Notes: generated from the sequence alone by a model not told the origin. A DNA stretch of 64,000 bases from Anaerolineae bacterium (GCA_041685915.1 JAWLEV010000003.1:11206-75205), one strand, 5' to 3'. Counted from the first letter of the stretch, positions 40,046-64,000 are shown. Made by a program: numbers and translations.

Positions 40046-40071
40046 ATTTCCTGCGTTCGCCGATGGCCTTC

Positions 40072-40653: not shown

Positions 40654-40671
40654 CTCCTCACCCCCTTGAAA

Positions 40672-43404: not shown

Positions 43405-43435
43405 CCCTTCCCAAATCGGCGAAAAGGAGAGAAAA

Positions 43436-44206: not shown

Positions 44207-44285
44207 GAATGACAAAAGGTCCTCCCTCCCCGTATATCGCCCAGGAGAGGGAGAACCACCACACCGATCCGATCTTCATAATGCC

Positions 44286-45653: not shown

Positions 45654-45726
45654 AGTATACCTCTCCTTTCCACATCATCTCCGATAGCCATTATATGTCA
45701 CGAACCAGGACCGCTCAAGTCACCCC

Positions 45727-45984
45727 CTAAGAGCGACGGCGTCCTACTCCAGTTATGACAAGAAAAACCACTGCACCGAGAACAGCCACAGCAAAACTGC
45801 GCGCGTTGAATCCAAACCGTAACCCCTGGCCCGTTATGATCTGCGTCAAAAAGCCACCGATAAACGCGCCGACGATGCCCACCACGATGTCGAACAGACA
45901 CCCCTGACGCCCGTCCGTGCCCGTGATGATACTTGCTAACCATCCTGCAAGCGCTCCAAAGATAATCCAAGCAAGCAGGCCCAT
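45727..45984 (-). CDS. GlsB/YeaQ/YmgE-family stress-response membrane protein
   Basis: MGLLAWIIFGALAGWLASIITG...VVGIVGAFIGGFL. Confidence 0.75.
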   Translation of the reverse strand: MGLLAWIIFGALAGWLASIITGTDGRQGCLFDIVVGIVGAFIGGFLTQIITGQGLRFGFNARSFAVAVLGAVVFLVITGVGRRRS

Positions 45985-46025
45985 GTATCCCCTCCCATTA
46001 TATAACGGCTATCCAGTTTTGCCTT

Positions 46026-46430
46026 TTACTCGTCATGGCGTGTTTGCTCATCGCGCGTACCTCGCTCACCCCGCCGACCATGCAAGATATCCTCTAGAAA
46101 ATCATCGATCTCTTTTTCTACCATCTGTCCCAATGTCTTCCAGTCGCTATCCGGCTGTGCCCCAAGGATGTCAGCAATACTACACCTGACCGAGCACTCC
46201 ACGTGTGCACCAATCTCCTCCCAGTTGGATCCCGCTTCCATATCCAGCGCCCTGGAAATTTTCTTGCGTGCAGCATCGTCGCTCTGGCGCCCGATCTCCT
46301 CCCAATCTGCCCCGTCATCAGCTCCCACAGTATGTGCCGCATCGCGGCGAATCTGCTCCTTGATCTGCTCAAATATACTATCCCATCCCTGTGCCTTATT
46401 CTCCCTATCTTGCTCTTGCCGATCCGTCAT
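46026..46430 (-). CDS. Hypothetical acidic protein with three DWEEIG-like internal repeats
   Basis: ADWEEIGRQSDDAARKKISRAL, SNWEEIGAHVECSVRCSIADIL and SDWKTLGQMVEKEIDDFLEDIL. Confidence 0.5.
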   Translation of the reverse strand: MTDRQEQDRENKAQGWDSIFEQIKEQIRRDAAHTVGADDGADWEEIGRQSDDAARKKISRALDMEAGSNWEEIGAHVECSVRCSIADILGAQPDSDWKTLGQMVEKEIDDFLEDILHGRRGERGTRDEQTRHDE

Positions 46431-46518
46431 CCTTTGCGCCCCCTGTCAACAAGAATCCCTTTACATTATACTACATACTCCACAAGTGAACAGATAAACT
46501 GACGAAACTTTTAATCTG

Positions 46519-46548
46519 TTGGACGCGTTCACCCAACTGTGCTATGAT
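46519..46548 (+). promoter_or_regulatory. Sigma70-like promoter (TTGGAC, 18 nt spacer, TATGAT) upstream of the selenoprotein gene
   Basis: -35 at 46519-46524 and -10 at 46543-46548. A ~140-nt leader separates it from the ATG at 46689. Confidence 0.45.
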
Positions 46549-46688
46549 GATTGACGAGGGAAAAGGGGGGATCTGATGCCACAAGTCGAGTCTTTGCCCC
46601 GCTTCAACCTCGATCTGTTAGACTCTCTTTACTCCGTCAACGCATTCTCCAATTGGCCCATTCAGTCATCTTATGCCAGGAGGTCCAG

Positions 46689-48605: not shown

Positions 48606-48808
48606 GATCAAAAAGAGCGTGAACATCAGCCCCCGGGCTGGTCCAAAAGCAGCATAACCCTTGGGCTGAGAATGGGTTACAACTATTGTGAGAGGGCTCT
48701 TGACGCGCGTGATGGTCCAGCCTTCAAAGTATGACCATAGGCTCACACAGAGCAATGCCTTCTCAAAACACGCCGAGGCCAGTAACCTACAGTTAGAGAG
48801 GATAATTG

Positions 48809-50605
48809 ATGGGTAAGGAACCACACGTTTTCAAATTCCTGAGAGATAAGGTCATCATACACTCCAGGGGTAGAATGTGCGAGACCCCCGACGAACTTTT
48901 GACAAGCGCACCTTTTAAAAGATTCCTGAGAATCATCCTGCAGCGCCTGTCGAAAAGGAACTCGCGATTCATGGGAATATTTGGCCCCCAGACTGACGTC
49001 CCCCCGGAGATAGACGAGGAAAGCATCACGCTTTTGATCCAAACCTTTCAACATCTGGCCAAACTGGACCGAGCCGTGGTTCCCAATATCCTGCCCGATG
49101 CAAAAGTCTTTTTTAGAGATCCGGACCTGCTGAACGACTTTGTCGAGTATCTCTATAACGCCTGGCGAGACTATGACCGCTTTATCATCATTTCCGGCTT
49201 TCAGGGAGATCAGCTGGACGAAAGACCTTATAGAACGTTTAACGAAACTGTGGAACAACTTATGCATCTGGTGCGAGGGACGTATCGCGATGTCCAGGAA
49301 AATATCACCCGTCAACATCCCCAAGTCTATCGCCAGGCGCGAGCGGGCGCAGACATTGCCACCATCGTCTCCCGCCAGAGCACCCGCGCGACATCCTGGA
49401 TAGAAGGAATCCCCTATAGCAAGCTAGAGCAAATACCCATCGTTCGTCAAGTATTGCTATATCCTCCACTGGTGCTCGATCCACCGATGAACCGCCGCAC
49501 AGGCCGATTCCGACGCGTCGAGGAAAATCCTCTCCTGCTTGTCCATCCCACAAGTGACGAATGGATCTGCTATCCGGCCAAGGTGGGCAAGTTACTTGTC
49601 CTTGTCTATATCCACGAAAAGTTTCTCGAATTGGGACTTTCCCTATGCAACCTGTTCAAAGTCGCCAGCGACAAGGATCTGCAAAGCAAACCAGACGCCA
49701 TCTACATGTTCGGTGTGCCCGGCGATGTGCTGGATCGCTTTGGGTCCCTGCCCACAGTCTTCTATGACGATCCCGATAACGAGATACTGATAGCCGCCGT
49801 ACCTAACGCCGACCGCTTCGGCTACTTTGGCTATCTAAAAAAGATGATACTTACGCTGCACAATGTCAAGATGATGACGATGGACCGCTTACCGTTCCAT
49901 GGCGCGCTGGTCAAGATCAGATTGCATAGTCAGACGCACACCATCCTCCTCATCGGCGATAGTGGCGCCGGCAAGTCGGAAACGTTGGAGGCCTTCCGTG
50001 TGCTGAGCGAGAACGAACTCCAGGACATGATCATCATCGCCGACGATATGGGCGCCATCGATATAGCCGATGGCGATGTCCTGGGATACGGCACAGAGAT
50101 CGGCGCCTTCATCCGATTGGACGATCTGCAACCCGGCTATGAATTCGGTCAGATGGGACGCGCCATATTCATGAGCCCTTCTAGGACGAATGCCCGCCTG
50201 CTTTTGCCTGTGACAACCTATCCCGATGTCGTGCAGGGTAATAAAATCGATATGATCCTCTATGCTAATAACTACCAAGAGGTGGACGAGGATCATCCCA
50301 TCATCGAACGATTCAAAGATCCCAGAGAAGCCCTCGAGGTGTTCGAACAGGGCAAAGTGATGAGCAAGGGCACCACCACCTCAAAAGGCATTGTACACTC
50401 CTATTTTGCTAATATTTTCGGTCCCCCACAATACAGGGACCTACACGACCGGATCGCCCGTCGCTACTTTGACCATTTCTTCGCCCATAGGATATTCGTG
50501 GCACAGATCAGGACGCGCCTGGGAATTCCAGGCTGGGAAACCAAGGGACCAGAAGAGGCAGCAAGGGCCCTGATCAAGCTGATGATGACCGACTACCGCT
50601 CCTGA
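48809..50605 (+). CDS. HprK-like P-loop kinase-domain protein with a ~380-aa unknown N-terminal region
   Basis: The C-terminal region HGALVKIRLHSQTHTILLIGDSGAGKSETLEAFRVL...IIIADDMG matches the HPr kinase/phosphorylase C-domain Walker A motif (GDSGxGKSE) and downstream ADD. GAGAGGA RBS upstream. Confidence 0.55.
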   Translation: MGKEPHVFKFLRDKVIIHSRGRMCETPDELLTSAPFKRFLRIILQRLSKRNSRFMGIFGPQTDVPPEIDEESITLLIQTFQHLAKLDRAVVPNILPDAKVFFRDPDLLNDFVEYLYNAWRDYDRFIIISGFQGDQLDERPYRTFNETVEQLMHLVRGTYRDVQENITRQHPQVYRQARAGADIATIVSRQSTRATSWIEGIPYSKLEQIPIVRQVLLYPPLVLDPPMNRRTGRFRRVEENPLLLVHPTSDEWICYPAKVGKLLVLVYIHEKFLELGLSLCNLFKVASDKDLQSKPDAIYMFGVPGDVLDRFGSLPTVFYDDPDNEILIAAVPNADRFGYFGYLKKMILTLHNVKMMTMDRLPFHGALVKIRLHSQTHTILLIGDSGAGKSETLEAFRVLSENELQDMIIIADDMGAIDIADGDVLGYGTEIGAFIRLDDLQPGYEFGQMGRAIFMSPSRTNARLLLPVTTYPDVVQGNKIDMILYANNYQEVDEDHPIIERFKDPREALEVFEQGKVMSKGTTTSKGIVHSYFANIFGPPQYRDLHDRIARRYFDHFFAHRIFVAQIRTRLGIPGWETKGPEEAARALIKLMMTDYRS

Positions 50606-50644
50606 TCACAATACTCTGCACACACATTAATGGAGACGTCGATC

Positions 50645-51940
50645 ATGAAAACCTACACCGAACCTGCACACGAAATACCTATCAGCCGGGACGTCGATGT
50701 ACTTGTCATCGGTGGTGGCCCCGCAGGGCTGGCGGCTGCCATCGCCAGCGCCCGCCACGGCGCCCAGACGGTGCTCGTCGAGCGCTTTGGCTATCTGGGC
50801 GGCACAGCCACAGCTTCCCTCATGGCCTGCATTAACGGCTTTCGCAACCAGGTGGAACCCGACACCACACAGACGGTGCGGGGCATCGCTGAGGAGATCG
50901 TGCTCCAGCTGAAGGAACTGGATGGTCTGGGAGTGAGCCCTTATCCACAGAAATCCTATCCCGTGGACTATGCTGCGCGTAGTCCATCGAAGAACCGAGA
51001 AGCGATTCTCCAACCTGAACCCGGACAGCTGGAATACAGCTACGCCATCGACACCGAAAAGTTCAAATATATCACCCTAAAGCTGTGTGTTGATGCGGGC
51101 GTGGATATCATGTTCCACACCTGGTTTTGTAACAGCATCGTGGAGGATGACGTCCTGCGAGGCGTAATCGTTGAGAATAAATCGGGACGCCAGGCCATGA
51201 TGGCCCGGGCCATAGTGGACGCCTCCGGCGACGGCGACGTGGCCGCGCGTGCGGGCGCTCCCTTTTGGCAGACGAGCCAAGACGAAGCACCGCGACTCAA
51301 CGACACCCTGATGTATCGTATCCAGTTCGGCAAAGAGCGGCCGGAAGCGCCCTATGCCTGCGACTTTGACACCCACGCCGTCGTCTGGGGACCGGGCGTA
51401 GGTCCACTCAACGGCGTCGACGCCGACGACCTCTCTCAGGGCGAGATTGAGGCCCGGCTGCGCGTCTACGAGGACTGGGCTGCAAAACAAAGAGAGGAAC
51501 CCAACCTGGCAGACGCCGAGGTCATCGCTACACCGCCGCTCCTGGGTATCCGCCAGACGCGCTTCATCGAGGGCGAATACAAACTGACCGCCGAGGACGC
51601 CATAGACGGACGTCGCTTTAGCGACGTGGTAGCCATCAGCTCCTGCCCCATCATCTCCTATTATGGCTACCGCCGCTACCTGGAACACGAGGGATATGAC
51701 ATCCCCTATCGCTCCTTGGTCCCAAAGAGAATCGACAACCTCATCGTCGCTGGCCGTTGCATCTCCAGCGAACAGCAACCCTACGAATCACACCGCGCTA
51801 TGGTGCCCATCATGGCCATCGGCCAGGCAGCGGGCCTCGCAGCCGCCCTTTCCGCATCAGAGGATGTCCCACCGAGAACTCTGAACGTGAAACATCTGCA
51901 GGATGCACTTATCGCCCAGGGCGCAGAACTGCGTAAATGA
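50645..51940 (+). CDS. FAD-dependent oxidoreductase (GIDA/FAD_oxidored-like)
   Basis: DVLVIGGGPAGLAAAIASARHGAQTVLVER (dinucleotide-binding), ...IVDASGDGDVAARAG. Confidence 0.75.
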   Translation: MKTYTEPAHEIPISRDVDVLVIGGGPAGLAAAIASARHGAQTVLVERFGYLGGTATASLMACINGFRNQVEPDTTQTVRGIAEEIVLQLKELDGLGVSPYPQKSYPVDYAARSPSKNREAILQPEPGQLEYSYAIDTEKFKYITLKLCVDAGVDIMFHTWFCNSIVEDDVLRGVIVENKSGRQAMMARAIVDASGDGDVAARAGAPFWQTSQDEAPRLNDTLMYRIQFGKERPEAPYACDFDTHAVVWGPGVGPLNGVDADDLSQGEIEARLRVYEDWAAKQREEPNLADAEVIATPPLLGIRQTRFIEGEYKLTAEDAIDGRRFSDVVAISSCPIISYYGYRRYLEHEGYDIPYRSLVPKRIDNLIVAGRCISSEQQPYESHRAMVPIMAIGQAAGLAAALSASEDVPPRTLNVKHLQDALIAQGAELRK

Positions 51941-52006
51941 TATGCTCACATTCCATCCTTCTATGGGGAATTATATTCCAAAATCATCAGGGGAAAGCCC
52001 TACAAA

Positions 52007-53014
52007 TTGACCCTCCCCTATCTCGATGATATAATCACCTTGTTACAGTTTATAACAAGTGAGCATATACAATTGAAAAACAAGATATATAGCCTGATAA
52101 AACTGACAATAAGCATAGGATTATTGCTTCTTCTCTTCACCCTATTCGATTTTCGTGAATCTTGGGAAGCCTTGCGGGGGATGGATTATCGCTATTTTGG
52201 ATTGGCCTTTCTTCTGTTCCAAAGTGGCCTGGTTATCCGATCTTTCCGCTGGCATTTCCTCCTTGACGCCGTTCAGGTGTCTGTCCCTATCCATCGTCTC
52301 CTATACCTCTATTATGTGGGAGAGTTCTTCAATACCTTTCTTCCATCGGGCCTCGGCGGGGATGCCGTCAAGATGTACGAACTCGCCCGCCACAGTCAAA
52401 AAAGATCTGAGGCTGTAGGTACCGTCTTTCTCGACCGTGTAGCCGGACTTGTCGTACTCTCGGCCATGGGCCTGGCAGTTTTACCGTTGGCCCCAAAATC
52501 TCTGCCCCAACAACAAATCGTCGTCTTGGGTCTTGCCTCGCTCATGGGGCTTGCTGGCCCGTGGCTCCTGCTCCAACGGCGTCTGGCCGAACGGATAATC
52601 GGAGTCATGCCAAATATCCTGCGTCACAAAGCGCAATCCCTGTACGATGCCGTGCATACCTCTGGCACCCACGCACTGTGGAAAGCGCTACTTGTCTCGA
52701 TTCCTTTCACCATAATACTTTTCGCCCTCAATTTTTCTCTCGCCCTGGGGCTGGGTATCGAGATTCCCTTTTTCTATTTCGTGATTTTTATGCCCCTCTT
52801 ATCCCTTACTTTACTCTTGCCCTCCGTCGGTGCCTTGGGAACAAGAGAGACGGCCTATGTATTGCTCTTTGGAAGTGCAGGGATCAGTGAGCCGATGGCC
52901 ATTGCCCTGTCTCTATCCCTGTACTTTATCACCGCCTGCAGCGGTATCATAGGAGCCTTGCTATATGCTCTCGATTCCATAGTTCGACTGAGATCGGAAA
53001 ACGAAACCACATAA
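52007..53014 (+). CDS. Flippase-like polytopic membrane protein (UPF0104 / LPG-synthase-TM-like). TTG start is uncertain.
   Basis: 6-8 predicted TM segments. FNTFLPSGLGGDAVKMYEL is characteristic of this family. It lies immediately upstream of the GT2 gene. Confidence 0.6.
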   Translation: MTLPYLDDIITLLQFITSEHIQLKNKIYSLIKLTISIGLLLLLFTLFDFRESWEALRGMDYRYFGLAFLLFQSGLVIRSFRWHFLLDAVQVSVPIHRLLYLYYVGEFFNTFLPSGLGGDAVKMYELARHSQKRSEAVGTVFLDRVAGLVVLSAMGLAVLPLAPKSLPQQQIVVLGLASLMGLAGPWLLLQRRLAERIIGVMPNILRHKAQSLYDAVHTSGTHALWKALLVSIPFTIILFALNFSLALGLGIEIPFFYFVIFMPLLSLTLLLPSVGALGTRETAYVLLFGSAGISEPMAIALSLSLYFITACSGIIGALLYALDSIVRLRSENETT

Positions 53015-53024
53015 GGAGACGGGA

Positions 53025-53996
53025 ATGGATCTATCCATCATAGTGCCCATATACAACGAAGAGGAGAATATCCCCCGTCTTTATGATGAGCTTACCGCCG
53101 TCCTGGATCCCCTCCAACGGGAATATGAGATCATCTGTGTGGATGACGGAAGCCAGGATCGTTCCTTTACCCTACTCAAGGAACTGGCCCAGAATGATTC
53201 CTGCGTCAAGGTCATTCGTTTTCGCAAGAACTTTGGACAATCGGCGGGGTTCAGTGCGGGATTCGACCATGCCAGGGGTGATATTGTGATCACCATCGAC
53301 GCTGATCTGCAAAACGACCCGTCCAGCATTCCCGATCTACTGGACAAGATGTCAGAGGGATATGATGTGGTCAGTGGCTGGCGGAAGGACAGGAAGGATG
53401 CTTTCCTCACTCGAAAACTTCCCTCCAGGATAGCCAACTGGTTAATCTCACGAACGACCGGCGTCGACGTGCACGATAGAGGATGCTCCCTGCGCGCACA
53501 CCGAAAAGAGATCGTCAAGGAGATCAACCTCTATGGCGAACTCCACCGTTTCATCCCCGATATGGCCGCCTGGATCGGCGCCTCCATGACCGAGATGCCG
53601 GTCGGTCATCGCCCCCGCATGTACGGTCAATCCAAGTACGGCATCGGCAGGACGTTCCGTGTGATCCTTGACCTGATCACGGTGCGCTTCCTGCAGGGCT
53701 ACTCCACACGACCCATCCACATCTTTGGCAAGTGGGGCTTGGGCTTTGGCCTGCTGGGCTTCCTCCTTGCTCTTTGGTTGAGTATCCAAAAACTCATTCT
53801 AGGGCAATCGATAGGGGATCGCCCCGCCCTCATCCTCTCCGTCCTCCTTATCCTTGTCGGCATACAACTGGTATCCATTGGCCTCCTGGGCGAGATGACC
53901 GTGCGCATTTACTATGAGGGCCAAAATATGCCCATCTACCGCGTGCGGGAGATCATAGGATATGCGGATGAAGGAAAAGAAGACACGCGGGATTAG
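53025..53996 (+). CDS. Polyprenyl-phosphate glycosyltransferase (GT2, DPM1/ArnC/GtrB-like) with two C-terminal TM helices
   Basis: LSIIVPIYNEEENI...EIICVDDGSQDRS...VITIDADLQNDP...VVSGWR. The C-terminal TM pair is typical of ArnC/GtrB. AAGGAGACGGG RBS upstream. Confidence 0.85.
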   Translation: MDLSIIVPIYNEEENIPRLYDELTAVLDPLQREYEIICVDDGSQDRSFTLLKELAQNDSCVKVIRFRKNFGQSAGFSAGFDHARGDIVITIDADLQNDPSSIPDLLDKMSEGYDVVSGWRKDRKDAFLTRKLPSRIANWLISRTTGVDVHDRGCSLRAHRKEIVKEINLYGELHRFIPDMAAWIGASMTEMPVGHRPRMYGQSKYGIGRTFRVILDLITVRFLQGYSTRPIHIFGKWGLGFGLLGFLLALWLSIQKLILGQSIGDRPALILSVLLILVGIQLVSIGLLGEMTVRIYYEGQNMPIYRVREIIGYADEGKEDTRD

Positions 53997-54001
53997 ATGA
54001 C

Positions 54002-56569
54002 ATGAGCCTTCAAGGCCCTAAGAGAGTAGCCCTCTCCCTTTGCGCTTTGGTACTCGCCAATCTGATCATCTTTTTCACCCAGATTACCGCGGTTCAGACG
54101 CTGGCCGCTTTCCTCCTGACCACTTTGCTGCCGGGATTCCTACTGTTATCTTTACTCCCCCTCCGACACAGCGGTCCCCACTATACCTTACAACATCTTG
54201 TCATCGGCCTCGGCTTGGGATACGCCATCGCCATCGCGGGAATCCTCTTCCTTCATTACCTCCCAGGTCCGATCACCAGAACGCGCGTCGCGTTCCTTTA
54301 TGACATGGCGATCATGAGCCTGTTAGCTGCACGATACCTGACCCATAGCCAAGAGCATACAGTTCTTATGGATATACCCCACCACAAAGCGCTCTTGGGC
54401 CTCGTGATCATCTTGGCCATAGCATTTTTCTTTCGCTTCTTCAGTCTGGAATACGCGGAATTTCAGGGAGACGAGGTGGCTGTCCTACACAAGGCGGCAG
54501 CCTGCATTCAGGGCCGCGAAGACACCCTCTTTCTGCATAAAAAGGGCCCCGCCGAGATACTTTTGCCCACCGGCTACTATGCCCTTGCCAGACGTACAAA
54601 TGAATGGGCTGCGCGCTTTCCTTTCTCCCTCGCTAATCTCATCGGCGTCCTGACATTGTATGCCCTGGGCCAAGCGGTCTTATCCCGGAAAGGAGCATGG
54701 TGGGCGGCCCTGCTCGTGGCCTTGAACGGTTTTTTCGTCGCCTTTGGGCGCATCGTGCAGTATCAGAGCCTCGTCTTTCTTTTCAGTACCCTGGGCATCC
54801 TCGCAGCCCTCGGCTTCGCACGAGGGGGAGAATCACAAAGCGACTCTGGGACTCGCCCCAAGGAGCATACTGAACACGTCTTACATAGCAGACGCGTCAA
54901 CCTTTACCTCACCGCCGTATTCCTGGCCATGGGTCTCCTGGCCCATACCGACGCCGTCTTTGCCGTGATTACATCGGCGTTTATCATACTGAAAGCCGCA
55001 TATCAGCGTCACCACGAACGCGTAACGCTCCCAACGCTGACGGCCCTTCTGGGACCGATCTTGCTCGCTGGCGCCCTGCTCGCCTCTTTCTATGTTCCCT
55101 TTGCCCTACATCCCCAGTTCGATACCACCCAGGGCTATCTCAAGCAGCGTATGGGCGTCCGTCCCCCTTACAATAATCTCAATGTTCTGCTGAATCTCGG
55201 CTCCGTCTATAACGCCATCTACTATCTCGTATTTCTCGCCCTCGTCCTCGCCTGGGCCCTGATCAGACACATAACACGGAGAAAAGCAACTGGATGGGCG
55301 ATTCTCGTTTCATGGGGCGCCCTGTCGGCCACGCGCCTCCTGTTTCCTAGCATATGGTGCATGGGAGAGCGGGACCTGACCGGCCTTCTCTTTATCCTCC
55401 CTATCATATTCTCATTCGTGACCGCCAGGGAGGATCTGGGATGGCAATTGGCATTGGTATGGTTCGGCGTCCCTTTTTTGATCTACATGTTTGGCTTCCG
55501 CGAACCACGGACGCACATCTACACCTTTTTCCCGGGGGCTGCTCTCCTCGCCGCCGGGGAACTGGACAGGCCCTACAAATCTCCCTGGAAGACGTGGCTT
55601 GTCTGCGGAGGAAGCGGCATCATCCTGCTCCTCTCCGCTGCTTATCTCCATATCACTTTTATCAGTCATACGCCCGAATACAAGCGCACCTATCCAGAGC
55701 ATCGCATCCCCTTCTTTTGGACGCCGTATGGAGAGGAGATGCCTGAACACGGCCTCTTTGGTTTCCCTTATCGCGCAGGATGGAAAGCAGTCGGCCAACT
55801 CTATGCCTCCGGTGCACTGGAAGGGGACTATGGCACCAACGAAGAAACCCACATCACCAGATGGTACACGCGAGGCGAGTACGCCTGCCAGGTCCAACCC
55901 CACTACTACTTTGTGGCTGAAAATGTACAGGATGAACAGGCCGTACCCATGTACGATATCCAGTCTGACTACACCCATTTTGGCACGGTCTGGGTGGGCG
56001 ATACACGCAAAATGCGTTTGTACGAAAAGGGGGAAGCCCGTTTGCCCTATCGAGATTATCAGGCCGCAGAAGCGGAAACGTACTTTGACCGGGAACTGAC
56101 AGATCCCCATTATCCCACGGGCCTTCCTCCCCAGGACCCCACATCCCACATCCAGCAACCCATGGATCGCAAACTGGGCCAGAACGTCGAGTTCTTGGGT
56201 TACGATATAAAAAAAACGCGCATCTGTCCGGGGGATACCATCGTCCTGACGCTCTACTGGCGCGCACTTGGCAAGATGACCGAATCATATACAGTATTCA
56301 CACACGTCGCAGATTCGGGAGGCATATGGGCCCAAAAGGATCATCCACCGTCTTGTGGAAACAATCCCACAGACGAATGGGAACCCGGACACGTATACGT
56401 GGACCCCTATGTCATCGTGACCGATTCGGACATGCCGTCGGGCACGTATCCCCTTCTCGCCGGCATGTACCGCTTCGACACCGGAGAGCGGCTTCCCGTA
56501 TCGGATGCAGAGGGCACGCAACTGGGACATGCGATGGAACTGGGAACCATCACGGTACTGGATAGATGA
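54002..56569 (+). CDS. GT-C fold membrane glycosyltransferase (PMT/ArnT-like, GT39/83-type) with a soluble middle domain and one copy of the ~130-aa C-terminal repeat domain
   Basis: About 12 TM helices in the N-terminal ~480 aa, with the family-typical periplasmic-loop motif (EYAEFQGDEVAVLHKAAA...LFLHKKGPAE). It is paralogous to the next gene (LLPGFLL...FRFxxLxYAEFQGDE...). The C-terminal domain is listed below. Confidence 0.75.
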   Translation: MSLQGPKRVALSLCALVLANLIIFFTQITAVQTLAAFLLTTLLPGFLLLSLLPLRHSGPHYTLQHLVIGLGLGYAIAIAGILFLHYLPGPITRTRVAFLYDMAIMSLLAARYLTHSQEHTVLMDIPHHKALLGLVIILAIAFFFRFFSLEYAEFQGDEVAVLHKAAACIQGREDTLFLHKKGPAEILLPTGYYALARRTNEWAARFPFSLANLIGVLTLYALGQAVLSRKGAWWAALLVALNGFFVAFGRIVQYQSLVFLFSTLGILAALGFARGGESQSDSGTRPKEHTEHVLHSRRVNLYLTAVFLAMGLLAHTDAVFAVITSAFIILKAAYQRHHERVTLPTLTALLGPILLAGALLASFYVPFALHPQFDTTQGYLKQRMGVRPPYNNLNVLLNLGSVYNAIYYLVFLALVLAWALIRHITRRKATGWAILVSWGALSATRLLFPSIWCMGERDLTGLLFILPIIFSFVTAREDLGWQLALVWFGVPFLIYMFGFREPRTHIYTFFPGAALLAAGELDRPYKSPWKTWLVCGGSGIILLLSAAYLHITFISHTPEYKRTYPEHRIPFFWTPYGEEMPEHGLFGFPYRAGWKAVGQLYASGALEGDYGTNEETHITRWYTRGEYACQVQPHYYFVAENVQDEQAVPMYDIQSDYTHFGTVWVGDTRKMRLYEKGEARLPYRDYQAAEAETYFDRELTDPHYPTGLPPQDPTSHIQQPMDRKLGQNVEFLGYDIKKTRICPGDTIVLTLYWRALGKMTESYTVFTHVADSGGIWAQKDHPPSCGNNPTDEWEPGHVYVDPYVIVTDSDMPSGTYPLLAGMYRFDTGERLPVSDAEGTQLGHAMELGTITVLDR
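56174..56566 (+). repeat. C-terminal ~130-aa domain of unknown function, copy 1 (protein-level repeat)
   Basis: VEFLGYDIKKTRICPGDTIVLTLYWRALGKMTESYTVFTHVADSGG...PTDEWEPGHVYVDPYVIVTDSDMPSGTYPLLAGMYRFDTGERLP. Confidence 0.6.
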
Positions 56570-56615
56570 ACACGATAACCTGGGAACACGCCAAGAGGAA
56601 AGAGAAATAGGCACC

Positions 56616-59570
56616 GTGTGTCTGCAACCTGATGATTGGGGCAAAGTGGGAAAGCCCTTCCTCATACTATGCATCGCCTTTTTGCTCATTCTGATCCCCA
56701 CCAATCTTTGGCTGCGGACAGCGGGAGCGTTTGTCCTGACCTGTCTTCTCCCCGGATTCCTCCTTGGAGAGATCCTCTTTGGAGATGACGTGGCATTGGA
56801 CGTAGTAGAGAGACTGGGGATCTATATGGGACAGGGATATGTCGCCATGGTACTTGGTACGCTCCTCCTTCACTATATTCCGGGCTCCCTTCCCCCCAAA
56901 TCTATTCTGGGATTTTATGGCCTTCTGACCGTCGTACTTTTACTCTTCAGAACTGGCCAGGAACCTGGTGCCCCATGGCACCTCTCCCTCTCAAGCAAAG
57001 CCACGATCTGCTTGGTGATTCTTCTGTTGCTGGCCGGCTTTTTCCGTTTCACCCACTTGGGCTATTCGGAATTTCAGGGCGATGAGGGAAGAGCCCTTCT
57101 CAGAGCCGCAGAGATCCTGCAGGGAAACGACGAGGTCCTTTTCCTACACAAAAAGGGGCCCGTGGAAATCCTCGTACCCGCCGCCCTCTATGCCTCCCTA
57201 AGGCGCATTACCGAGGCCGCAGCCCGCTTCCCTTTCACTATGGCCAATCTCGCTGGCGTTGTCGCCCTTTTTGCACTGGGGCGAAGGCTGTTCAATGTAC
57301 ACGTTGGCCTGCTGGCCATGGCCCTCGTGACCATCGATGGCTTTTGTATCGGCTTCTCCCGCATCGTGCAGTATCAGAGCATCGTGCTCCTCATGACCCT
57401 CCTGACCCTGTTTTGTACCTATAGATGGTACCAGACAGAGGGGCAGCGGTCATCCTACCTGCTGGCTGCAGCAGCCTTCGCCGGCATCGCCCTGCTCGCC
57501 CATTATGAAGGCTTTTTCATCCTGCCCGGCGCCTTTTACATAGTCTGGTACGTGGCTAAAAGGAGGGGCTGGCCCCTCGATCAAGTTGCACGACGCGTCG
57601 GCCTCCCCATCCTGGTCGGCTGCAGTATCGTGGGCATCTTTTATATTCCCTTTACTTTACATCCCAACTTCTCGGAAACCCTGGAGTATCTGACCGACAG
57701 GCGAGTGGGAGTGAGCGACGGGCTGCCCTATAATAACATCACCGATTTCTTCTGGCGGACAAGTTACTACAACGCCTCCTATTATCCCCTGTTGATGGGG
57801 GCACTCCTCCTCACCACCATACAGTCCCTCCTGTTGCGAACACATAAAAAGCGTCTCATACGCATAGGTATATGCATCTTGAGCCTCGGCGCCTGGTTGC
57901 TGATCACCCTTTTCCCTTCCTGGTGGCAATTTGGCTCCGTCAATCTGTCAGTCATCGTTTTTCTCATCACCGGCATCCTGCTCCTCCGCGCTCCCTTATC
58001 TATAGAAGAGCGTACCCTTCTCATATGGTTCGGCAGCGCCGCCCTGCTCTACTTCTTTCTCATGGTCAAAGTTCACACCCATTATTATGTCGCTCTAATT
58101 CCCTGGATACTGCTCGTTGCCGGTAGTCTTTCGAAAGGATGGCGTTGGATAGGCCGCCGATGGAAGTCCATAATCTGGGTAACTGCTCTCTTGGGCATAG
58201 GATTCTGGATTCTATGCGGCTACTATGTGTACATCGTCTTTGTGCGTCATTCTGTGGAATACCACCAGAACTATCCTGCGGCGAAACCGGCCATCTACTG
58301 GACGCCCTTCGATGAGCGTCCCCAGGGAGGCTACTTTGGCTTCCCCTACCGCACGGCCTGGAAGGCCGTTGGTGGCATGTACGACGCGGGGATACTACAG
58401 GGAACGTATGACAGCAATCAGAAGGAACGGATCACCAACTGGTACACCCGTGGCGCCATGCGCTGCCCACAGGGCGACTACTTCATTATAGCACGTGACG
58501 TGGAGGACCCCCACGAGATAATCCCTGGCGTGATCACCGGTGAGTATATGCCCGCCATGGAGGTCCTGTGCGAGGGCGAACCGGAACTTTGGATCTTTGA
58601 ACGTGGCTACGACGGCCCTCTACAAAGTTACGACTATGCGACATATGCTGCCGATTTCGATCAACGCCTCTCGGCCCCCGTCTTTCGCGTGGGCGCTCCC
58701 CTGGATGAGGTTTTCGAGCCCCCCCATCACATGGATGCCAGTTTCGGCGGACATTTCCAACTCGCGGGATGGGACCTGAATCCCACCATCGTCGCCAGAG
58801 ACGACAGGACAATTCTGAGCCTCTATTGGCGAACTCTGAAACCAACCTCGGCCAACTACCACGTTTTTGTACATGTAGGCGGGAGAGACACCGTGGCCCA
58901 GGAGGATAGCGTGCCACGGTGCGGTCAACACCCTACGTATCGCTGGAAACAGGGAGAGGAGGTTGTGGACCACTATCTTCTCGAAATTCCTCCAGAAACC
59001 CCTTTGGGCGTGTACCCCATCCGTGTGGGCATGTACGATTTTATGAGCAAGGATCGTCTCACCATCAAGGACGCGGAAGGACGCGAGACGGATAGCTTGC
59101 GCCTCGCCCATATGCGCATCGGCGAGCCCCAGACAGAGAGACCTGACGTCACAGATGAATACACGGCGAAGCTGGGAGAAAAGATCCGCCTCCTAGGATA
59201 CGATCTCCCCGATACCCAACTACAGCCCGGCCAAGATGTATCCTTGACACTATATTGGGAGTGTCTGGACAGCATGGAAACGGACTATACAGTTTTTGTG
59301 CACCTTCTGGGACCCGACGGGGAGATATATGGCCAGAGGGACACCTTCCCCTTGAACGGTCGCTTACCCACCACATTCTGGGTCCCTCAAGAGACCCTGT
59401 CCGATCCCTACAACATCGATGTGACCAAAGACGCACCGTCGGGAACCTACTCCCTTGCCATCGGAATGTACGACTTGCATAGTGGCGACCGGCTCCCGGC
59501 GACGAGCGTCGACGGCACTTCTCTGCCCAACGATCAGATTACGCTGCCTACCACACTTTCTCATGACTGA
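56616..59570 (+). CDS. GT-C fold membrane glycosyltransferase paralog with two tandem copies of the C-terminal repeat domain. Start uncertain (ORF opens at 56505; GTG 56616 precedes the first TM helix).
   Basis: Same architecture as 54002..56569 (HLGYSEFQGDEGRALLRAAEILQGNDEVLFLHKKGPVE). The ORF overlaps the upstream gene's last 65 nt. Confidence 0.7.
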   Translation: MCLQPDDWGKVGKPFLILCIAFLLILIPTNLWLRTAGAFVLTCLLPGFLLGEILFGDDVALDVVERLGIYMGQGYVAMVLGTLLLHYIPGSLPPKSILGFYGLLTVVLLLFRTGQEPGAPWHLSLSSKATICLVILLLLAGFFRFTHLGYSEFQGDEGRALLRAAEILQGNDEVLFLHKKGPVEILVPAALYASLRRITEAAARFPFTMANLAGVVALFALGRRLFNVHVGLLAMALVTIDGFCIGFSRIVQYQSIVLLMTLLTLFCTYRWYQTEGQRSSYLLAAAAFAGIALLAHYEGFFILPGAFYIVWYVAKRRGWPLDQVARRVGLPILVGCSIVGIFYIPFTLHPNFSETLEYLTDRRVGVSDGLPYNNITDFFWRTSYYNASYYPLLMGALLLTTIQSLLLRTHKKRLIRIGICILSLGAWLLITLFPSWWQFGSVNLSVIVFLITGILLLRAPLSIEERTLLIWFGSAALLYFFLMVKVHTHYYVALIPWILLVAGSLSKGWRWIGRRWKSIIWVTALLGIGFWILCGYYVYIVFVRHSVEYHQNYPAAKPAIYWTPFDERPQGGYFGFPYRTAWKAVGGMYDAGILQGTYDSNQKERITNWYTRGAMRCPQGDYFIIARDVEDPHEIIPGVITGEYMPAMEVLCEGEPELWIFERGYDGPLQSYDYATYAADFDQRLSAPVFRVGAPLDEVFEPPHHMDASFGGHFQLAGWDLNPTIVARDDRTILSLYWRTLKPTSANYHVFVHVGGRDTVAQEDSVPRCGQHPTYRWKQGEEVVDHYLLEIPPETPLGVYPIRVGMYDFMSKDRLTIKDAEGRETDSLRLAHMRIGEPQTERPDVTDEYTAKLGEKIRLLGYDLPDTQLQPGQDVSLTLYWECLDSMETDYTVFVHLLGPDGEIYGQRDTFPLNGRLPTTFWVPQETLSDPYNIDVTKDAPSGTYSLAIGMYDLHSGDRLPATSVDGTSLPNDQITLPTTLSHD
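58743..59130 (+). repeat. C-terminal repeat domain, copy 2
   Basis: FQLAGWDLNPTIVARDDRTILSLYWRTLKPTSANYHVFVHVGGRD...PTYRWKQGEEVVDHYLLEIPPETPLGVYPIRVGMYDFMSKDRL. Confidence 0.6.
59171..59567 (+). repeat. C-terminal repeat domain, copy 3
   Basis: IRLLGYDLPDTQLQPGQDVSLTLYWECLDSMETDYTVFVHLLGPDGEIYGQRDTFPLNGRLPTTFWVPQETLSDPYNIDVTKDAPSGTYSLAIGMYDLHSGDRLP. Confidence 0.6.
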
Positions 59571-60588
59571 AACATCACCCAAAAACGCGAACAATCTGAA
59601 AAAAGCCCTGTTCGGACTGCCCCATATCATCACATGGATCCTTATATTAGCCACCGTGGCCGCCTTTGGCCTGTGGGGCTTTTCACACCTCGATGGCTTC
59701 TCCTGGAGCTGGGACGAAAGCCTGCTCATTGCTACCGCACGGGCGGTGAATGCAGGGAACGCCCTCTATGAGGAGATTTGGTACGATTATCCTCCCCTAT
59801 TCCCTTTACTCCTGCAACCAGCATTCCGACTCGGCTCCGAACCCATACAGGCTGCTCGAGGCCTCATCGTCGTATGTAGCCTCGTAACCCTGATAAGCGC
59901 GGGCTGGATTACTCATCAGGTAAGCCATAGCGATCTGGCCTCTATAACAGCAGTTCTCCTGCTCCTGTTGGCACCCCCTTTTGTGGCCAACTCACGAGCC
60001 GCCCTGGCAGATCTCCCCGCCCTCACACTGGCTGCACTGGCACTGGCGACCACCTTGCACGGCAAAAAGTCAGAGGCCCGGCCATGGTTCGCTGTGGCCG
60101 GATTTCTCTACAGCGCAAGCCTGGCCATCAAACCAACCTCCTACTTTGTCATCTTGCCCATGATCGTCCTGTTGTGGACCGGAGATGGCGACACCGCTTT
60201 TCCTTTACAGGACTTGACGGCACTGGTTGAGCGGCTCCTCTTTGTCGCCGGAGGTTGCACTATCGGGCTCATTCTCTTTTTCGCCTGGGTGCCCATGAGG
60301 GCCTTTCTCCAACAACTGCTCCAAACCTATTGGGGTGCTCAACAACACCACGGTTTCGAGTTTGTGGAGAACTTGAGGCACGTATGGCTCTACTTTGTTG
60401 GAGACGAGTATGGCGGCTCACAATGCGGACTCTTTTCCCTGAGCGCTTTTGGATGTCTGGCCATGTTGATGCTTCTCGCCGACGGAGTCCTGACAATGCC
60501 GTCAGATTGGAGAGCAGGCCATACCCGTAACTGCAGGCAGCCACCTCCCTCCAAGGATATCTTTATCCAAATTGCTGTTAGTAGATAG
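59563..60588 (+). CDS. Short (341 aa) GT-C-like polytopic membrane protein without the C-terminal soluble domains
   Basis: Start ATG overlaps the upstream stop (ATGACTGA). The first loop FSWSWDESLLIATARAVNAGNALYEEIWYDYPPLF matches the loop of the partial gene at 63073 (FAWKYDEGINVSKAQLLLDRHHLYEDIWSDQPPLF). Confidence 0.6.
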   Translation: MTETSPKNANNLKKALFGLPHIITWILILATVAAFGLWGFSHLDGFSWSWDESLLIATARAVNAGNALYEEIWYDYPPLFPLLLQPAFRLGSEPIQAARGLIVVCSLVTLISAGWITHQVSHSDLASITAVLLLLLAPPFVANSRAALADLPALTLAALALATTLHGKKSEARPWFAVAGFLYSASLAIKPTSYFVILPMIVLLWTGDGDTAFPLQDLTALVERLLFVAGGCTIGLILFFAWVPMRAFLQQLLQTYWGAQQHHGFEFVENLRHVWLYFVGDEYGGSQCGLFSLSAFGCLAMLMLLADGVLTMPSDWRAGHTRNCRQPPPSKDIFIQIAVSR

Positions 60589-60676
60589 AGATGATATCAT
60601 AATTGCTCAGTAAAGAGCGAGCACATATACCTTCAGTTGAAAGAAGGGCTGATCGACTAGTGTTGACTATGCACCG

Positions 60677-63076
60677 ATGAACCTGAAAGAATACATAGCA
60701 GGTAAATGGGGGAAGGCGGGGATCATCATCCTGGTCATCGTCCTGGCCCTATCCCTGTTCCTCCGTCTCTATGCCATAGACGTCTTCCTCGCCGGCGACG
60801 AGACAAAGTGGATCTGCCGTAGCATCAATTTCCACAACGCCCTTGTAAACGGGGATTGGCCCTCCACTTATCAGTCGGAACACCCCGGTGTGATCACCAT
60901 GTTGACCGGAACCTTGGCCGTCCCCTTGAACAAGGCCGGGGAATGGATTGGTTTATGTCAGGAAATGGGTGGCAGCAAACTTACCCGCGTGGACGACAGG
61001 GCGACATTGCTATGTTTGCCATCGCTGATCTTTCAGGCCAGACGCGCCCTCGCTGTCATCACCTGGGGTGGCATCGTCGTCCTCTCTCTTCTTCTACAAA
61101 AACTGTTTGAAAAAAGCGTAGCCTTGCTCGCCACGACCCTGGTCGCCCTCGACCCCTTCCATCTGGCCCTGTCCCGCGTCCTTCATCTGGACGCCCTCCT
61201 TACCACCTTTATGACCCTCTCGATGATCAGTCTGTTGATATACGAACTGCGAGATCGACGTCGAGGATATCTTTACCTTTCGGGTATCATGTGTGGACTG
61301 GCCATAGCCAACAAGTCACCCGCCCTCTTTCTTCTCCCCTTCACGGCCATGATCCTTGCCCTCAAAGCGCTCCGTGGAAAAAGGGAGAACCGCCCCATGC
61401 GTCTCAAAGAGGCACTGCACACCATGATTATATGGAGCGGTATCGCCGGAGCCGTCGTGCTTTTATTATGGCCCTCCCTGTGGGCGAACCCCGTGGGAAC
61501 CTTGAAGAATGTGCTGGGGGCGGCCGTAGAGTACGCCGAAGAACCCCACGGCAACTCGAATTTTTTCTGGTTTGCCATACGGCCCGACCCGGGCCCGGCC
61601 TTTTATCCCGTTGCCTGGCTGTTCCGCACTACGCCGTGGGTTATCGTGGGTTTGATACTCTTGATAGTGAAGATGATCCGCCAGAAGGACCACAACCAGA
61701 GCGTCACCTCTATGCTCCTCTTTGTCCTCCTGTACACCCTCTTTATGACCACGGGGGCAAAAAAGTTTGACAGATACCTGCTCCCCGTCATCCCTACCCT
61801 GAATATCCTCTCCGCCCTGGGATGGATGTGGGGGCTGCGACGGATGACTGGGAAGCGCTTGCGCAATCGGCACACATGCGCTCCCCTTTTGCTTTGCGGA
61901 TTCTTGGCCATCACACAATTGGCGTTGATCTGGCCCACACAGCCCTACTATTTTTCCTATTACAATCCCCTCCTTGGAGGTGCACGGACGGCCACCAGGA
62001 TCCTCCTCGTTGGCTGGGGGGAGGGAATGGAAAAGGCCGCCGCTTACCTCAACGATAAGCCAGGGGCCGAGGAATTCCACGTCAATACCGCACACATCTC
62101 CCAGTTGGCCCCCTTTTTCAAAGGCCATACGAGCAGCGCCTCGGAACTCGATCTCGCCGAATCGGACTACTATGTCTTCTACTGGAATACCATCCAGCGT
62201 CGGCGCGAGCCAGAGGTTCTGAACCGCTTCTATAGTGTCGAGGAACCGGAGCACGTTGTACGCGTGAATGGCATCGACTACGTTTGGATCTATCCCAACA
62301 CCCTCTACCGCCCTGTGATTGACTACCTTGAGGAAAGGGCTGACCGTAAGCAAGACATCGTGCTCGTCGACGTGAATACGGCCCTCATGCGCCAATACGA
62401 GGGCCCCCTTGATCTGGTCGCCGTCGATGGCGCCCAGACAGAAGATGACATCGTACAGGAACTCTCCCAGGTTACAGCGGGGCGGCAAAGGGTATGGTTC
62501 CTGACCTTTCCAGAAACACCCGGAGATCCCCGTCAACTCGTTCGCCATCACCTGGAAAAGCAAGCACAAGGCGTGCAGAAAATAACCTTTGAGGGTATGG
62601 TTTTGGAGTGCTTCGAACTCGATGACGAGGCACACTTCACCCTCCCCACGCCCACAGTGCCACGAAAAGTCCGCCTTGGAAAAAAGATCCACCTGATCGG
62701 CTATGACCTGCCCCAGAGAACGATCACAGACGAGAAACCTCTGACGGTCCGCCTCTATTGGCGTACAGAGGCCCTCCTGGACACCAATTATACCGTCTTT
62801 GTCCACCTGCTGGGGCCAGATGGCGCCAGGTACGGCCAGAAGGACAGTACCCCACAGAACGGTGCGCGTCCAACGGACATCTGGCTCACGGATGAGATCA
62901 TCGCCGACGAGTACAGGATCGATGTGGCGGAGGATGCCCCCCCAGGAGCCTATGCGCTGGCTGTGGGAATGTACAATTGGGAGACGGGTGAACGCCTTCC
63001 CGCCCGGGAAGGACAGGAACACCTGGATGAGAACCGCATCCTCATTGAGGGCTTATACAAGGAAGAGACCCCATGA
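60677..63076 (+). CDS. GT-C fold membrane glycosyltransferase (PMT/ArnT-like) with one C-terminal repeat-domain copy
   Basis: Polytopic N-terminal domain (LRLYAIDVFLAGDETKW...) plus a C-terminal domain about 50% identical to the second domain copy of the 56616..59570 protein. Confidence 0.75.
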   Translation: MNLKEYIAGKWGKAGIIILVIVLALSLFLRLYAIDVFLAGDETKWICRSINFHNALVNGDWPSTYQSEHPGVITMLTGTLAVPLNKAGEWIGLCQEMGGSKLTRVDDRATLLCLPSLIFQARRALAVITWGGIVVLSLLLQKLFEKSVALLATTLVALDPFHLALSRVLHLDALLTTFMTLSMISLLIYELRDRRRGYLYLSGIMCGLAIANKSPALFLLPFTAMILALKALRGKRENRPMRLKEALHTMIIWSGIAGAVVLLLWPSLWANPVGTLKNVLGAAVEYAEEPHGNSNFFWFAIRPDPGPAFYPVAWLFRTTPWVIVGLILLIVKMIRQKDHNQSVTSMLLFVLLYTLFMTTGAKKFDRYLLPVIPTLNILSALGWMWGLRRMTGKRLRNRHTCAPLLLCGFLAITQLALIWPTQPYYFSYYNPLLGGARTATRILLVGWGEGMEKAAAYLNDKPGAEEFHVNTAHISQLAPFFKGHTSSASELDLAESDYYVFYWNTIQRRREPEVLNRFYSVEEPEHVVRVNGIDYVWIYPNTLYRPVIDYLEERADRKQDIVLVDVNTALMRQYEGPLDLVAVDGAQTEDDIVQELSQVTAGRQRVWFLTFPETPGDPRQLVRHHLEKQAQGVQKITFEGMVLECFELDDEAHFTLPTPTVPRKVRLGKKIHLIGYDLPQRTITDEKPLTVRLYWRTEALLDTNYTVFVHLLGPDGARYGQKDSTPQNGARPTDIWLTDEIIADEYRIDVAEDAPPGAYALAVGMYNWETGERLPAREGQEHLDENRILIEGLYKEETP
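62676..63073 (+). repeat. C-terminal repeat domain, copy 4
   Basis: IHLIGYDLPQRTITDEKPLTVRLYWRTEALLDTNYTVFVHLLGPDGARYGQKDSTPQNGARPTDIWLTDEIIADEYRIDVAEDAPPGAYALAVGMYNWETGERLP. Confidence 0.6.
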
Positions 63077-64000
63077 GCAAAGCGATGCGATCCCAAATCC
63101 TTTTCTGGACGCTGTTGATACTCCTCGTCGTGCTATTCATCCTTTGGCAATGGGGGCCCGTCCACAGCTTTGCCTGGAAATACGACGAGGGGATAAATGT
63201 ATCAAAAGCACAGTTGTTGTTGGATCGTCACCACCTCTATGAGGACATTTGGTCCGATCAGCCACCACTGTTCACCTTCATGCTCGCGACAACCTTTCTC
63301 CTGTTCGGTGAGAGCGTTGCCGTCGGACGCCTCATGGTACTTGCCCTGGCCGGATTGGCCTTGCTGTCGCTGGCCTGGATCGCGGAACAGGTGGCGGGCA
63401 AGGTGGCAGCGCTCCTGGCTGCCGTGGCTCTAGCATTGTTTCCCCACTTTCAGGAACTGTCCCAGTTGATCATGATCGGACTGCCAGCCATCAGCCTTGG
63501 GCTACTCGCCCTCGCCTTTGGATTTCGATATCGGGCAAAAGGTCGAATGCGCTGGCTGCTATTTGCAGGGCTTTCATTTGGTCTCAGTCTACTCGTCAAG
63601 CCCATCACAGCGCCCATGTTTCTGCCCCTCAGCATGCTATCCTTCGGAATATGGGAGGAAAGACTCCCTCTCCATAAGCGCATTCCGCCATGGACTTTCT
63701 TTGCCGCGGCGACCCTACTTCCCGTTATGGTCGCCCTTATATGTTGTAGCCCCCGTGCCTTTGTCCAGCAAGTAGCGGGTACGCTGTTCGGCGCACGGAG
63801 AGCACATAACCTTTCCCTGATCGAGAATGTCCGCCAAATTGGCATCTACCTTTCCCGTGATAAATGGGAACTGTCGCATGCCGGCCTTTCTATCCTGGCG
63901 CTCCTGGGCATGACCTCCCTGGTCCTGCATCGCCGCTGGCACCCACTCGCCATCCTCGGAACGTGGCTCGGCGGCGTATTAGGGGCCCTCGTCCTTCACA
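63073..64000 (+). CDS. GT-C-like membrane glycosyltransferase paralog, partial (continues beyond the window end)
   Basis: ATG overlaps the upstream stop (ATGA). I translated it manually to the window end with no stop. It is absent from the ORF track because it has no in-window stop. Confidence 0.6.
   Translation, partial: MSKAMRSQILFWTLLILLVVLFILWQWGPVHSFAWKYDEGINVSKAQLLLDRHHLYEDIWSDQPPLFTFMLATTFLLFGESVAVGRLMVLALAGLALLSLAWIAEQVAGKVAALLAAVALALFPHFQELSQLIMIGLPAISLGLLALAFGFRYRAKGRMRWLLFAGLSFGLSLLVKPITAPMFLPLSMLSFGIWEERLPLHKRIPPWTFFAAATLLPVMVALICCSPRAFVQQVAGTLFGARRAHNLSLIENVRQIGIYLSRDKWELSHAGLSILALLGMTSLVLHRRWHPLAILGTWLGGVLGALVLH

Follow-up and report, generated by a model that had tools for sequence, protein, structure and literature searches.

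The region from position 52,073 to beyond position 64,000 of an Anaerolineae DNA stretch (the window, 64,000 nt) holds seven co-directional open reading frames (ORFs) on the + strand. They encode a flippase-like membrane protein (Flp), a glycosyltransferase of family GT2 and an array of five glycosyltransferases of the GT-C fold (C1 to C5), and the region forms an operon-like gene cluster of a Chloroflexota (Anaerolineae) genome. We propose that this cluster probably specifies a three-component-type extracytoplasmic glycosylation pathway with an acceptor in the cell envelope. The recurrent linkage of flp, GT2 and GT-C genes, their common direction, the short gaps between them and purifying selection support this proposal. 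What defines a three-component system is a donor in the form of a lipid-linked monosaccharide, together with a GT-C enzyme (PMC11127046). The cluster holds a GT2 of the GtrB/ArnC/DPM1 type, built of a GT-A domain and C-terminal transmembrane (TM) helices, and GT-C fold glycosyltransferases are encoded alongside this donor synthase. No gene for a small flippase of the GtrA family with four TM helices was found in 52073-64000, which the seven genes fill with intervals of at most 89 nt and where the sole extra membrane protein is the UPF0104 (PF03706) protein Flp.

Putative donor synthase, candidate flippase and gene linkage

The GT2 gene (53025..53996, +) encodes a polyprenyl-phosphate glycosyltransferase of the ArnC/GtrB type with 323 aa, a GT-A domain (PF00535, 128 bits) and a C-terminal TM hairpin. 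Full-length alignments of the protein to solved ArnC (9hwj, 6.7e-63) and Synechocystis GtrB (5ekp, 3e-54) span both D92-A-D94, the DxD of the conserved DADLQ motif, and the hairpin. A further motif, DRGCSLRAHR, resembles DYGCMLRAYR of ArnC. Among the NCBIfam equivalog models, ArnC (NF007986) gives 242.9 bits against a cut-off of 529 and PgfS gives 189 against 500. As judged from these alignments, the enzyme class is clearly that of GtrB, ArnC and DPM1.

Flp (52073..53014, +, 313 aa) exceeds the cut-offs of both models for the UPF0104/PplT/MprF flippase-domain family, PF03706 (LPG_synthase_TM, 148 bits, cut-off 33.4) and TIGR00374 ('flippase-like domain', 66.2 bits, cut-off 43.2), and has no sequence match in the PDB. 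Its translation most likely starts at TTG 52,073, since a protein of 313 aa is called from this position in the public assembly and in a relative, and the Pfam match begins eight residues downstream. The TTG at 52,007, which an earlier sequence-only reading of this DNA had taken as the start, coincides with the first base of the -35 box in a promoter-like site close to the consensus. From its family and gene linkage, Flp is a candidate flippase for a lipid-linked sugar. Within the UPF0104/PplT/MprF flippase-domain family, lipid translocation has been shown for MprF only, and stand-alone members are unverified (PMC12713373; 10.1101/2022.03.11.483950).

The public assembly cited for gene calls is GCA_051744105.1, a metagenome-assembled genome of Chloroflexota/Anaerolineae, whose contig JBNJCR010000003.1 matches the window and ends 420 nt short of the window end. 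The ATG of GT2 follows the flp stop after 10 nt, which include GGAG, and 5 nt separate the GT2 stop from the ATG of C1. C2 begins with GTG (56616) 46 nt after the C1 stop, and C3 and C4 lie 88 nt apart. C2 and C3 overlap by ATGACTGA (59563-59570), C4 and C5 by ATGA (63073-63076). The gene cluster itself was thus found as the sequence-only reading had outlined it, the start of flp excepted. Of the tight packing with translational coupling that it also claimed, both overlaps are real, but the one between C2 and C3 leads into a decaying gene (see below).

A candidate sigma-70-like promoter lies at 52007..52035 (+), 38 nt 5' of flp, with TTGACC and TATAAT separated by 17 nt and a TG-extended -10 box. 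It matches 11 of 12 hexamer positions and is the sole near-consensus site within 51500-64000. Promoter-like sites overall were not in excess over shuffled sequences (13 versus 8.2 +/- 2.5), so this site is a candidate only, and terminator counts in the region did not rise above those in shuffles either. Since neither scan showed enrichment, the operon boundaries are drawn from spacing only. Rfam and transfer RNA scans gave no match within or adjoining the locus.

To place the cluster in context, 80 genome loci were fetched with GT2 homologues (52-77% identity) as anchors. A flp homologue lies within 10 kb of GT2 in 34 of them, and 24 contain at least one GT-C gene as detected with two local hidden Markov models (HMMs), which are insensitive in distant loci. 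In six loci (L003, L004, L005, L009, L012 and L083) the flp-GT2 pair is followed or flanked by one to five GT-C genes. Within Chloroflexota, locus L003 holds five GT-C genes, L009 four and L083 five plus a remnant of C3, and in L046 five GT-C ORFs surround GT2 with flp at the far end. The metagenome contig L086 (1-17354) carries at least six consecutive GT-C ORFs. Similar clusters with three to seven GT-C genes recur in Chloroflexota.

These loci also bear on another explanation, in which flp and GT2 form a self-contained glycolipid module. GT2 would glycosylate a membrane lipid and Flp would expose it as the final product, a scheme put forward for gpgSDF and hexSDF, and the GT-C enzymes would be mere neighbours that use other donors. 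UPF0104 proteins have ties to the pathways of phospholipids and glycolipids (10.1101/2022.03.11.483950; PMC12713373) and are co-encoded with lipid-glycosylating enzymes in gpgSDF (PMC12713373). Furthermore, many of the GT2-anchored loci contain flp and no GT-C detectable by the models used, although this count suffers from the low sensitivity in distant loci. In the closer Anaerolineae relatives, however, same-strand GT-C genes directly follow or flank flp-GT2 with minimal gaps, and the GT2 studied here is a full-length homologue of the polyprenyl-phosphate enzymes ArnC and GtrB, whereas GpgS belongs to GT4 (PMC12713373). We therefore regard a separate glycolipid module as quite improbable.

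GT-C enzymes and their C-terminal domain

All five GT-C ORFs score above the Pfam gathering threshold for PMT_2 and/or PMT. The PMT model (PF02366, cut-off 22.7) gives 25.4 bits for C1, 37.6 for C2, 24.8 for C3 and 51.2 for C4, and C5 matches PMT_2 only; the PMT_2 scores are 28.4 for C1, 37 for C4 and 56 for C5. A core alignment of the five proteins shows an invariant Asp-Glu pair and a few further invariant residues. C1 (54002..56569, +) is an enzyme of 855 aa with four extra N-terminal TM helices, a periplasmic domain and one C-terminal (Ct) domain at about 56159-56566; its pair is D157-E158 (54470-54475). C2 (56616..59570, +) comprises 984 aa when read from GTG 56616, where the gene calls of the public assembly and of a relative also put the start; an alternative ATG at 56505 would overlap C1. 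It contains D156-E157 (57081-57086) and two Ct domains (about 58743-59087 and 59142-59567). In C4 (60677..63076, +, 799 aa) the pair is D41-E42 (60797-60802); its periplasmic domain is of the alpha/beta type, and a single Ct domain lies at about 62645-63073. C5 (63073..64000, +) is cut by the window end, so that 309 codons of its 5' part are present; it is a PMT_2 protein with D38-E39 (63184-63189).

In C3, C4 and C5 the Asp-Glu pair stands a few residues past the first TM helix, which itself follows a short N-terminus bearing Lys or Arg. In C1 and C2 it comes after the fifth helix, owing to the N-terminal extension of four helices, and since this number is even the same orientation is kept. 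Topology prediction from hydropathy was crude, with unreliable TM counts and equivocal positive-inside totals, and for this reason the orientation is taken from the short, positively charged N-termini together with homology to GT-C enzymes of solved structure. Both place the loop-1 Asp-Glu of every GT-C putatively on the outer face. The periplasmic catalytic Asp/Glu expected by the sequence-only reading is accordingly kept in all five ORFs, after a TM helix and on the predicted outer side. Its family assignments (flippase-like UPF0104 protein, ArnC/DPM1-like GT2, GT-C) also held in HMM and fold comparisons. Two outcomes had been named as speaking against it, polytopic proteins belonging to families other than glycosyltransferases and a lack of the periplasmic Asp/Glu, and neither was found.

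The extension of C1 and C2 covers about 130 residues ahead of the GT-C core (54002-54400 in C1, 56616-57010 in C2), has no Pfam match and is at least partly present in the homologues of L083, L003 and L004.

C4 has 1,777 homologues at E<=1e-10 that sources name 'ArnT family' or 'GT39', and D41 and E42 are invariant in 46 of 46 homologous sequences. Its predicted structure (predicted local distance difference test score 90) shows the periplasmic alpha/beta domain followed by a beta-sandwich, and the top structural matches are all GT-C enzymes. Opposite to C4, on the - strand, lies an ORF of 518 aa (61466-63022) that is not called in the public assembly; it is most likely spurious and of a kind common opposite G+C-rich coding sequence.

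Despite these family matches, more specific models place the enzymes outside the characterised groups. In the GT-C proteins the Pfam scan found no match to MIR, the luminal/periplasmic beta-trefoil of eukaryotic GT39 Pmt proteins, or to PMT_4TMC, their C-terminal module, C4 reaches 16.3 bits on the ArnT equivalog (NF009784, cut-off 567), and on the Agl23 model TIGR03663 C4 (42.1 bits), C5 (26.5) and C1 (17.1) all stay below the cut-off of 126. By these scores no GT-C of the array would count as PMT proper or ArnT proper.

These scores also bear on an Arn-like resistance pathway, in which GT2 would form Und-P-Ara4FN or Und-P-Ara4N and an ArnT-like enzyme would transfer the sugar to a lipid anchor, lowering the surface charge. 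GT2 has ArnC as its best-scoring relative among solved structures and also as its best NCBIfam model, the DRGCSLRAHR motif resembles its ArnC counterpart, and C4 homologues carry the 'ArnT family' name in public sources. The equivalog scores, however, fall far short for GT2 (243 versus 529 bits) and for C4 (16 versus 567), and no genes like arnA, arnB, arnD, arnE or arnF were found in the locus or in the ten upstream ORFs (36444-51940). Chloroflexota are without biosynthesis genes for lipopolysaccharide (LPS) (PMC13319060, citing Sutcliffe 2010), and a single lipid modification needs no four or more different GT-C enzymes. Because the Arn equivalogs failed, no arn genes were found in the locus or those ten ORFs and the phylum lacks LPS genes, we consider lipid A modification of the ArnT type very improbable.

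Identities across the paralogs range from 14 to 40%. Compared over the full length, C1 and C2 are 35% identical; the value for C3 and C5 is 29%, and within the membrane part C4 shares 21-27% with C1 and C2. The array appears to comprise three old GT-C lineages, C1 with C2, C3 with C5, and C4 alone. Relatives of C1 were found in L083 (72% identity) and L003 (48%), of C2 in L083 (79%) and L004 (52%), and of C4 at 85%, about 60% and lower among its 1,777 matches. C5 has metagenomic relatives at 47-53% identity, always directly 3' of a C4-like gene. Where the contig does not break them off, these are stop-to-stop ORFs of about 790-835 codons that carry two Ct domains. The set is, as far as sequence divergence tells, one of long-specialised enzymes and not a recent local amplification. 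The expansion into a paralog series suggested by the sequence-only reading did not hold, since the paralogs are ancient and orthologues of C1, C2, C4 and C5, as well as a C3 homologue with 66% identity, occur in other Anaerolineae.

C3 (59563..60588, +) is an ORF of 341 aa that keeps the N-terminal ~300 residues of a GT-C enzyme, including D51-E52 (59713-59718), and is devoid of the distal TM helices and of any periplasmic domain. An index of 5.8 billion proteins held two relatives only, C3 itself and protein P0002 (66% identity). The latter is N-terminally cut, runs more than 330 residues past the end of similarity to C3 and ends with a domain of the Ct type. In tblastn searches P0002 residues 1-195 align to the window up to 60,468, and residues 515-531 match frame +3 at 60,471-60,521 (11/17 identical); the latter match is not significant window-wide (E 0.5), and its E value becomes ~5e-4 when rescaled to the 200 nt past the breakpoint. 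The simplest reading is that C3 suffered an internal deletion of ~320 codons with a frame shift, with the junction at about 60468/60471. In L083 only C3 residues 148-233 are still recognisable, and this further reduction indicates that the gene is decaying in this lineage. C3 is a decaying gene copy that probably contributes nothing. Hence the claim of five GT-C enzymes stands for the number of ORFs; three complete genes and one partial gene look functional, but C3 is a deletion remnant.

Selection was estimated as the ratio of nonsynonymous to synonymous substitutions (dN/dS) against L083, the closest relative (~80% DNA identity). The values are 0.10 for flp, 0.07 for GT2, 0.21 for C1, 0.15 for C2 and 0.17 for C4, which indicates purifying selection on these five genes; for C3 the ratio was uninformative, with a remnant of 85 codons and saturated dS.

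It is worth weighing whether the array consists mostly of decaying, redundant copies with little present function. The deletion in C3 and its smaller residue in L083 point this way, as does the lack of conservation at the C5 slot in L083, which has other genes behind C4. Against this, C1, C2 and C4 are full length with invariant catalytic residues, show dN/dS values of 0.15-0.21 and are matched by orthologues with 48-85% identity from other genomes, which makes general decay highly improbable. In place of C5, the segment 3' of the C4 orthologue in L083 (12361-17769) carries an ORF of 123 aa and two different GT-C genes (713 and 940 aa). The content of the array appears to turn over quickly between related genomes.

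The Ct domain is an immunoglobulin (Ig)-like beta-sandwich of ~120 residues, present once in C1, twice in C2 and once in C4, always C-terminally, and it is also carried by homologues of C3 and C5. Its members follow the pattern LGYDL...LTLYW...YTVFVHL...Q.D..P..G..PT..W...D.Y......P.G.Y.L..G.Y.....RL, in which the residues of Gln-x-Asp ... Pro-Thr-x-x-Trp are invariant. No significant match was found in Pfam or NCBIfam, scans of single members gave only scattered sub-threshold Pfam hits to MG2, ML, Wzt_C and NPCBM_assoc, and no solved chain in the PDB matched by sequence. A word-indexed homologue search returned short fragments only, and the full HMM scan revealed the spread of the domain: among 1.84 billion cluster representatives (clustered at 50% identity) 30,360 proteins matched the profile at E<=1e-3 and 22,524 at E<=1e-10. 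The best matches are mostly 600-1,300 residues long, many near 1,000, with two to four copies that are usually C-terminal. When the N-termini of eight such proteins were scanned, they belonged to the PMT_2, PTPS_related or TMEM260-like GT-C families, except for one with a below-threshold YfhO match only and one with no Pfam match.

Foldseek returned generic Ig-like matches only (TM 0.56 or lower), and RbmA, Ig-like domains of GH2 enzymes and a porphyran-binding carbohydrate-binding module (CBM) were among those listed. AftD carries CBMs, and EmbC has a lectin-like C-terminal CBM (PMC3044687). By analogy with these C-terminal modules, the Ct domain is probably an acceptor-binding module, and most likely it would hold a glycan. 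As the fold is generic, glycan binding is no more than a plausible guess.

The nature of the acceptor separates our proposal from one in which the same donor pathway serves protein O-glycosylation, with the GT-C enzymes acting on Ser/Thr-rich regions of secreted or membrane proteins, like actinobacterial Pmt or like streptococcal PgfM1/PgfM2 with the GtrB-type PgfS. PMT and PMT_2 are the only significant Pfam families of the GT-C proteins, the PgfS model gives GT2 189 bits, and PgfS-dependent protein glycosylation is documented (PMC12041528). On the other hand, the GT-C enzymes are without MIR or PMT_4TMC domains, and the PMT scores of C1 and C3 are marginal (25 bits versus 22.7). The tandem beta-sandwiches are closer to the CBMs of glycan-elongating GT-C enzymes, though Ig-like domains could equally bind proteins. 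It is because of these tandem Ct modules that we prefer a glycan acceptor over a protein, and we hold protein O-glycosylation to be unlikely, if a serious alternative.

Proposed pathway and comparison with known systems

In the pathway that we propose, GT2 would take one sugar unit off a nucleotide sugar and load it onto polyprenyl phosphate, probably undecaprenyl phosphate, at the cytoplasmic face, an activity suggested by its family. Flp would then shift the polyprenyl-phosphate sugar to the outer leaflet, as its family and gene linkage suggest. Outside the membrane C1, C2, C4 and probably C5 would glycosylate different positions or acceptors from one donor. The fold and the catalytic motif are in place in these enzymes, and the loop-1 Asp-Glu would have the role that it has in PMT and ArnT. 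In this phylum, which is devoid of LPS, the favoured target would be a polysaccharide or glycoconjugate of the envelope. The sequential or branching mode of glycosylation suggested by the sequence-only reading is, like the acceptor, an inference.

The same co-encoded set of a GtrB/ArnC-type GT2, a candidate flippase and one or more GT-C enzymes is found in the three-component systems GtrA/GtrB/Gtr* of Shigella and Salmonella, CsbB/GtcA/YfhO, PgfS-PgfM and a ribofuranose system (PMC11127046). Their flippases are GtrA/SMR-like or MATE proteins, whereas here a UPF0104/MprF-flippase-domain protein takes this place; the flippase families of such systems are varied and unproven (PMC11127046). One GT-C per donor synthase is typical, in contrast to the four or five found here, and the same paper mentions 'more elaborate systems containing multiple ... 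GT-Cs' (PMC11127046). The cluster further differs in the unannotated C-terminal beta-sandwich of its GT-C enzymes and in its host, a monoderm-like, LPS-less member of the Chloroflexota.

An archaeal neighbourhood of UPF0104 (arCOG00899, 'AglD2'), an AglD-like GT2 and a PMT/STT3-like protein (arCOG00563 / Agl23-type) was predicted in 2015 by Makarova et al. (PMC5898192). It brings the same three families together, and C4 and C5 weakly match the Agl23 model TIGR03663. In contrast to the archaeal module, which is itself only predicted, the present cluster is bacterial, has multiple GT-C enzymes with Ct domains and reaches 42 versus 126 bits on Agl23. With Pmt (GT39) and ArnT (GT83) the array shares the GT-C(A) fold, the loop-1 Asp-Glu and a polyprenyl-phosphate monosaccharide as presumed donor, in agreement with the PMT and PMT_2 matches. 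The mycobacterial Emb and Aft enzymes are GT-C proteins with C-terminal CBMs. The GT-C enzymes here are not members of these sequence families, no sequence relation of the Ct domain to any solved chain is detectable, and the Emb/Aft donor synthase is a phosphoribosyltransferase dependent on phosphoribosyl pyrophosphate and not a GT2. The sequence-only reading had named Pmt, ArnT and Emb/Aft as analogues; the functional analogy stands, but membership in GT39 proper or ArnT does not.

A bolder version of the pathway, which we consider rather unlikely, would make the array a counterpart of Emb/Aft that builds, and does not merely decorate, an envelope polysaccharide of monoderm Chloroflexota from a single polyprenyl-phosphate monosaccharide. 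The Ct domain would then be a new CBM family that holds the growing chain, and Flp would be the first flippase of the MprF type to handle a polyprenyl-linked sugar.

Several points weigh against our proposal of a three-component-type pathway. We know of no biochemically characterised member in these subfamilies and of no UPF0104 protein demonstrated to flip a polyprenyl-linked sugar. The donors of the GT-C enzymes could come from genes elsewhere in the genome, and flp directly adjoins GT2 in only 9 of the 80 loci. The sugar cannot be told from the sequence of GT2, which falls far short of the equivalog cut-offs for both ArnC and PgfS. The beta-sandwich fold of the Ct domain is generic, with the lipid-binding domain NPC2/ML, Asf1 and RhoGDI matching equally well. 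Finally, the flippase role of GpgF is itself unverified (PMC12713373).

Chloroflexota envelopes are multilayered and their chemistry is largely obscure, and clusters of this kind are therefore prime candidates to encode the enzymes that assemble or modify the envelope layers. Two leads emerge. One is a very large family of C-terminal beta-sandwich domains on bacterial GT-C enzymes, absent from Pfam and NCBIfam and, by analogy, likely to bind acceptors. The other is the recurrent link between an MprF-type flippase-like protein and a GtrB/ArnC-type synthase, which would extend the substrates of such flippases to polyprenyl-linked sugars. Both would fill an uncharacterised branch of known pathway logic and do not overturn current concepts.

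Upstream genes and other observations in the window

The upstream genes for an oxidoreductase dependent on flavin adenine dinucleotide and for a protein of 599 aa were considered as members of the locus and rejected, since they are conserved only in L083 and not in L003 or L004. The 599-aa ORF (48806-50605, +) lies 5' of the oxidoreductase gene and has no Pfam match at E<=1e-3. At the matching position L083 has a gene call of 597 aa that is cut by the locus end and has no Pfam match either; the correspondence is positional.

Further upstream, at 46551-48605 (+), two ORFs in the same frame are split only by a TGA at 47253-47255. The first encodes an Rdx domain and the N-terminal part of UGSC, the second the rest of UGSC and about 400 aa more. 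Read-through of the TGA would give ...GVGH-U-STC..., a U-x-x-C redox motif in the context of the Pfam UGSC family, which makes this region a candidate selenoprotein gene. A hairpin begins ~10 nt past the UGA, with a stability not above that of shuffles (z -1.16).

A transfer-messenger RNA (tmRNA) gene was found at 29880-30276 (-), with an Rfam score of 174 bits and the tag AEDTYTPELALAA. A gene for a phage-type integrase (37907-38983, -) lies 7.6 kb from it. Because tmRNA genes are common integration sites, this region may be an integrated element.

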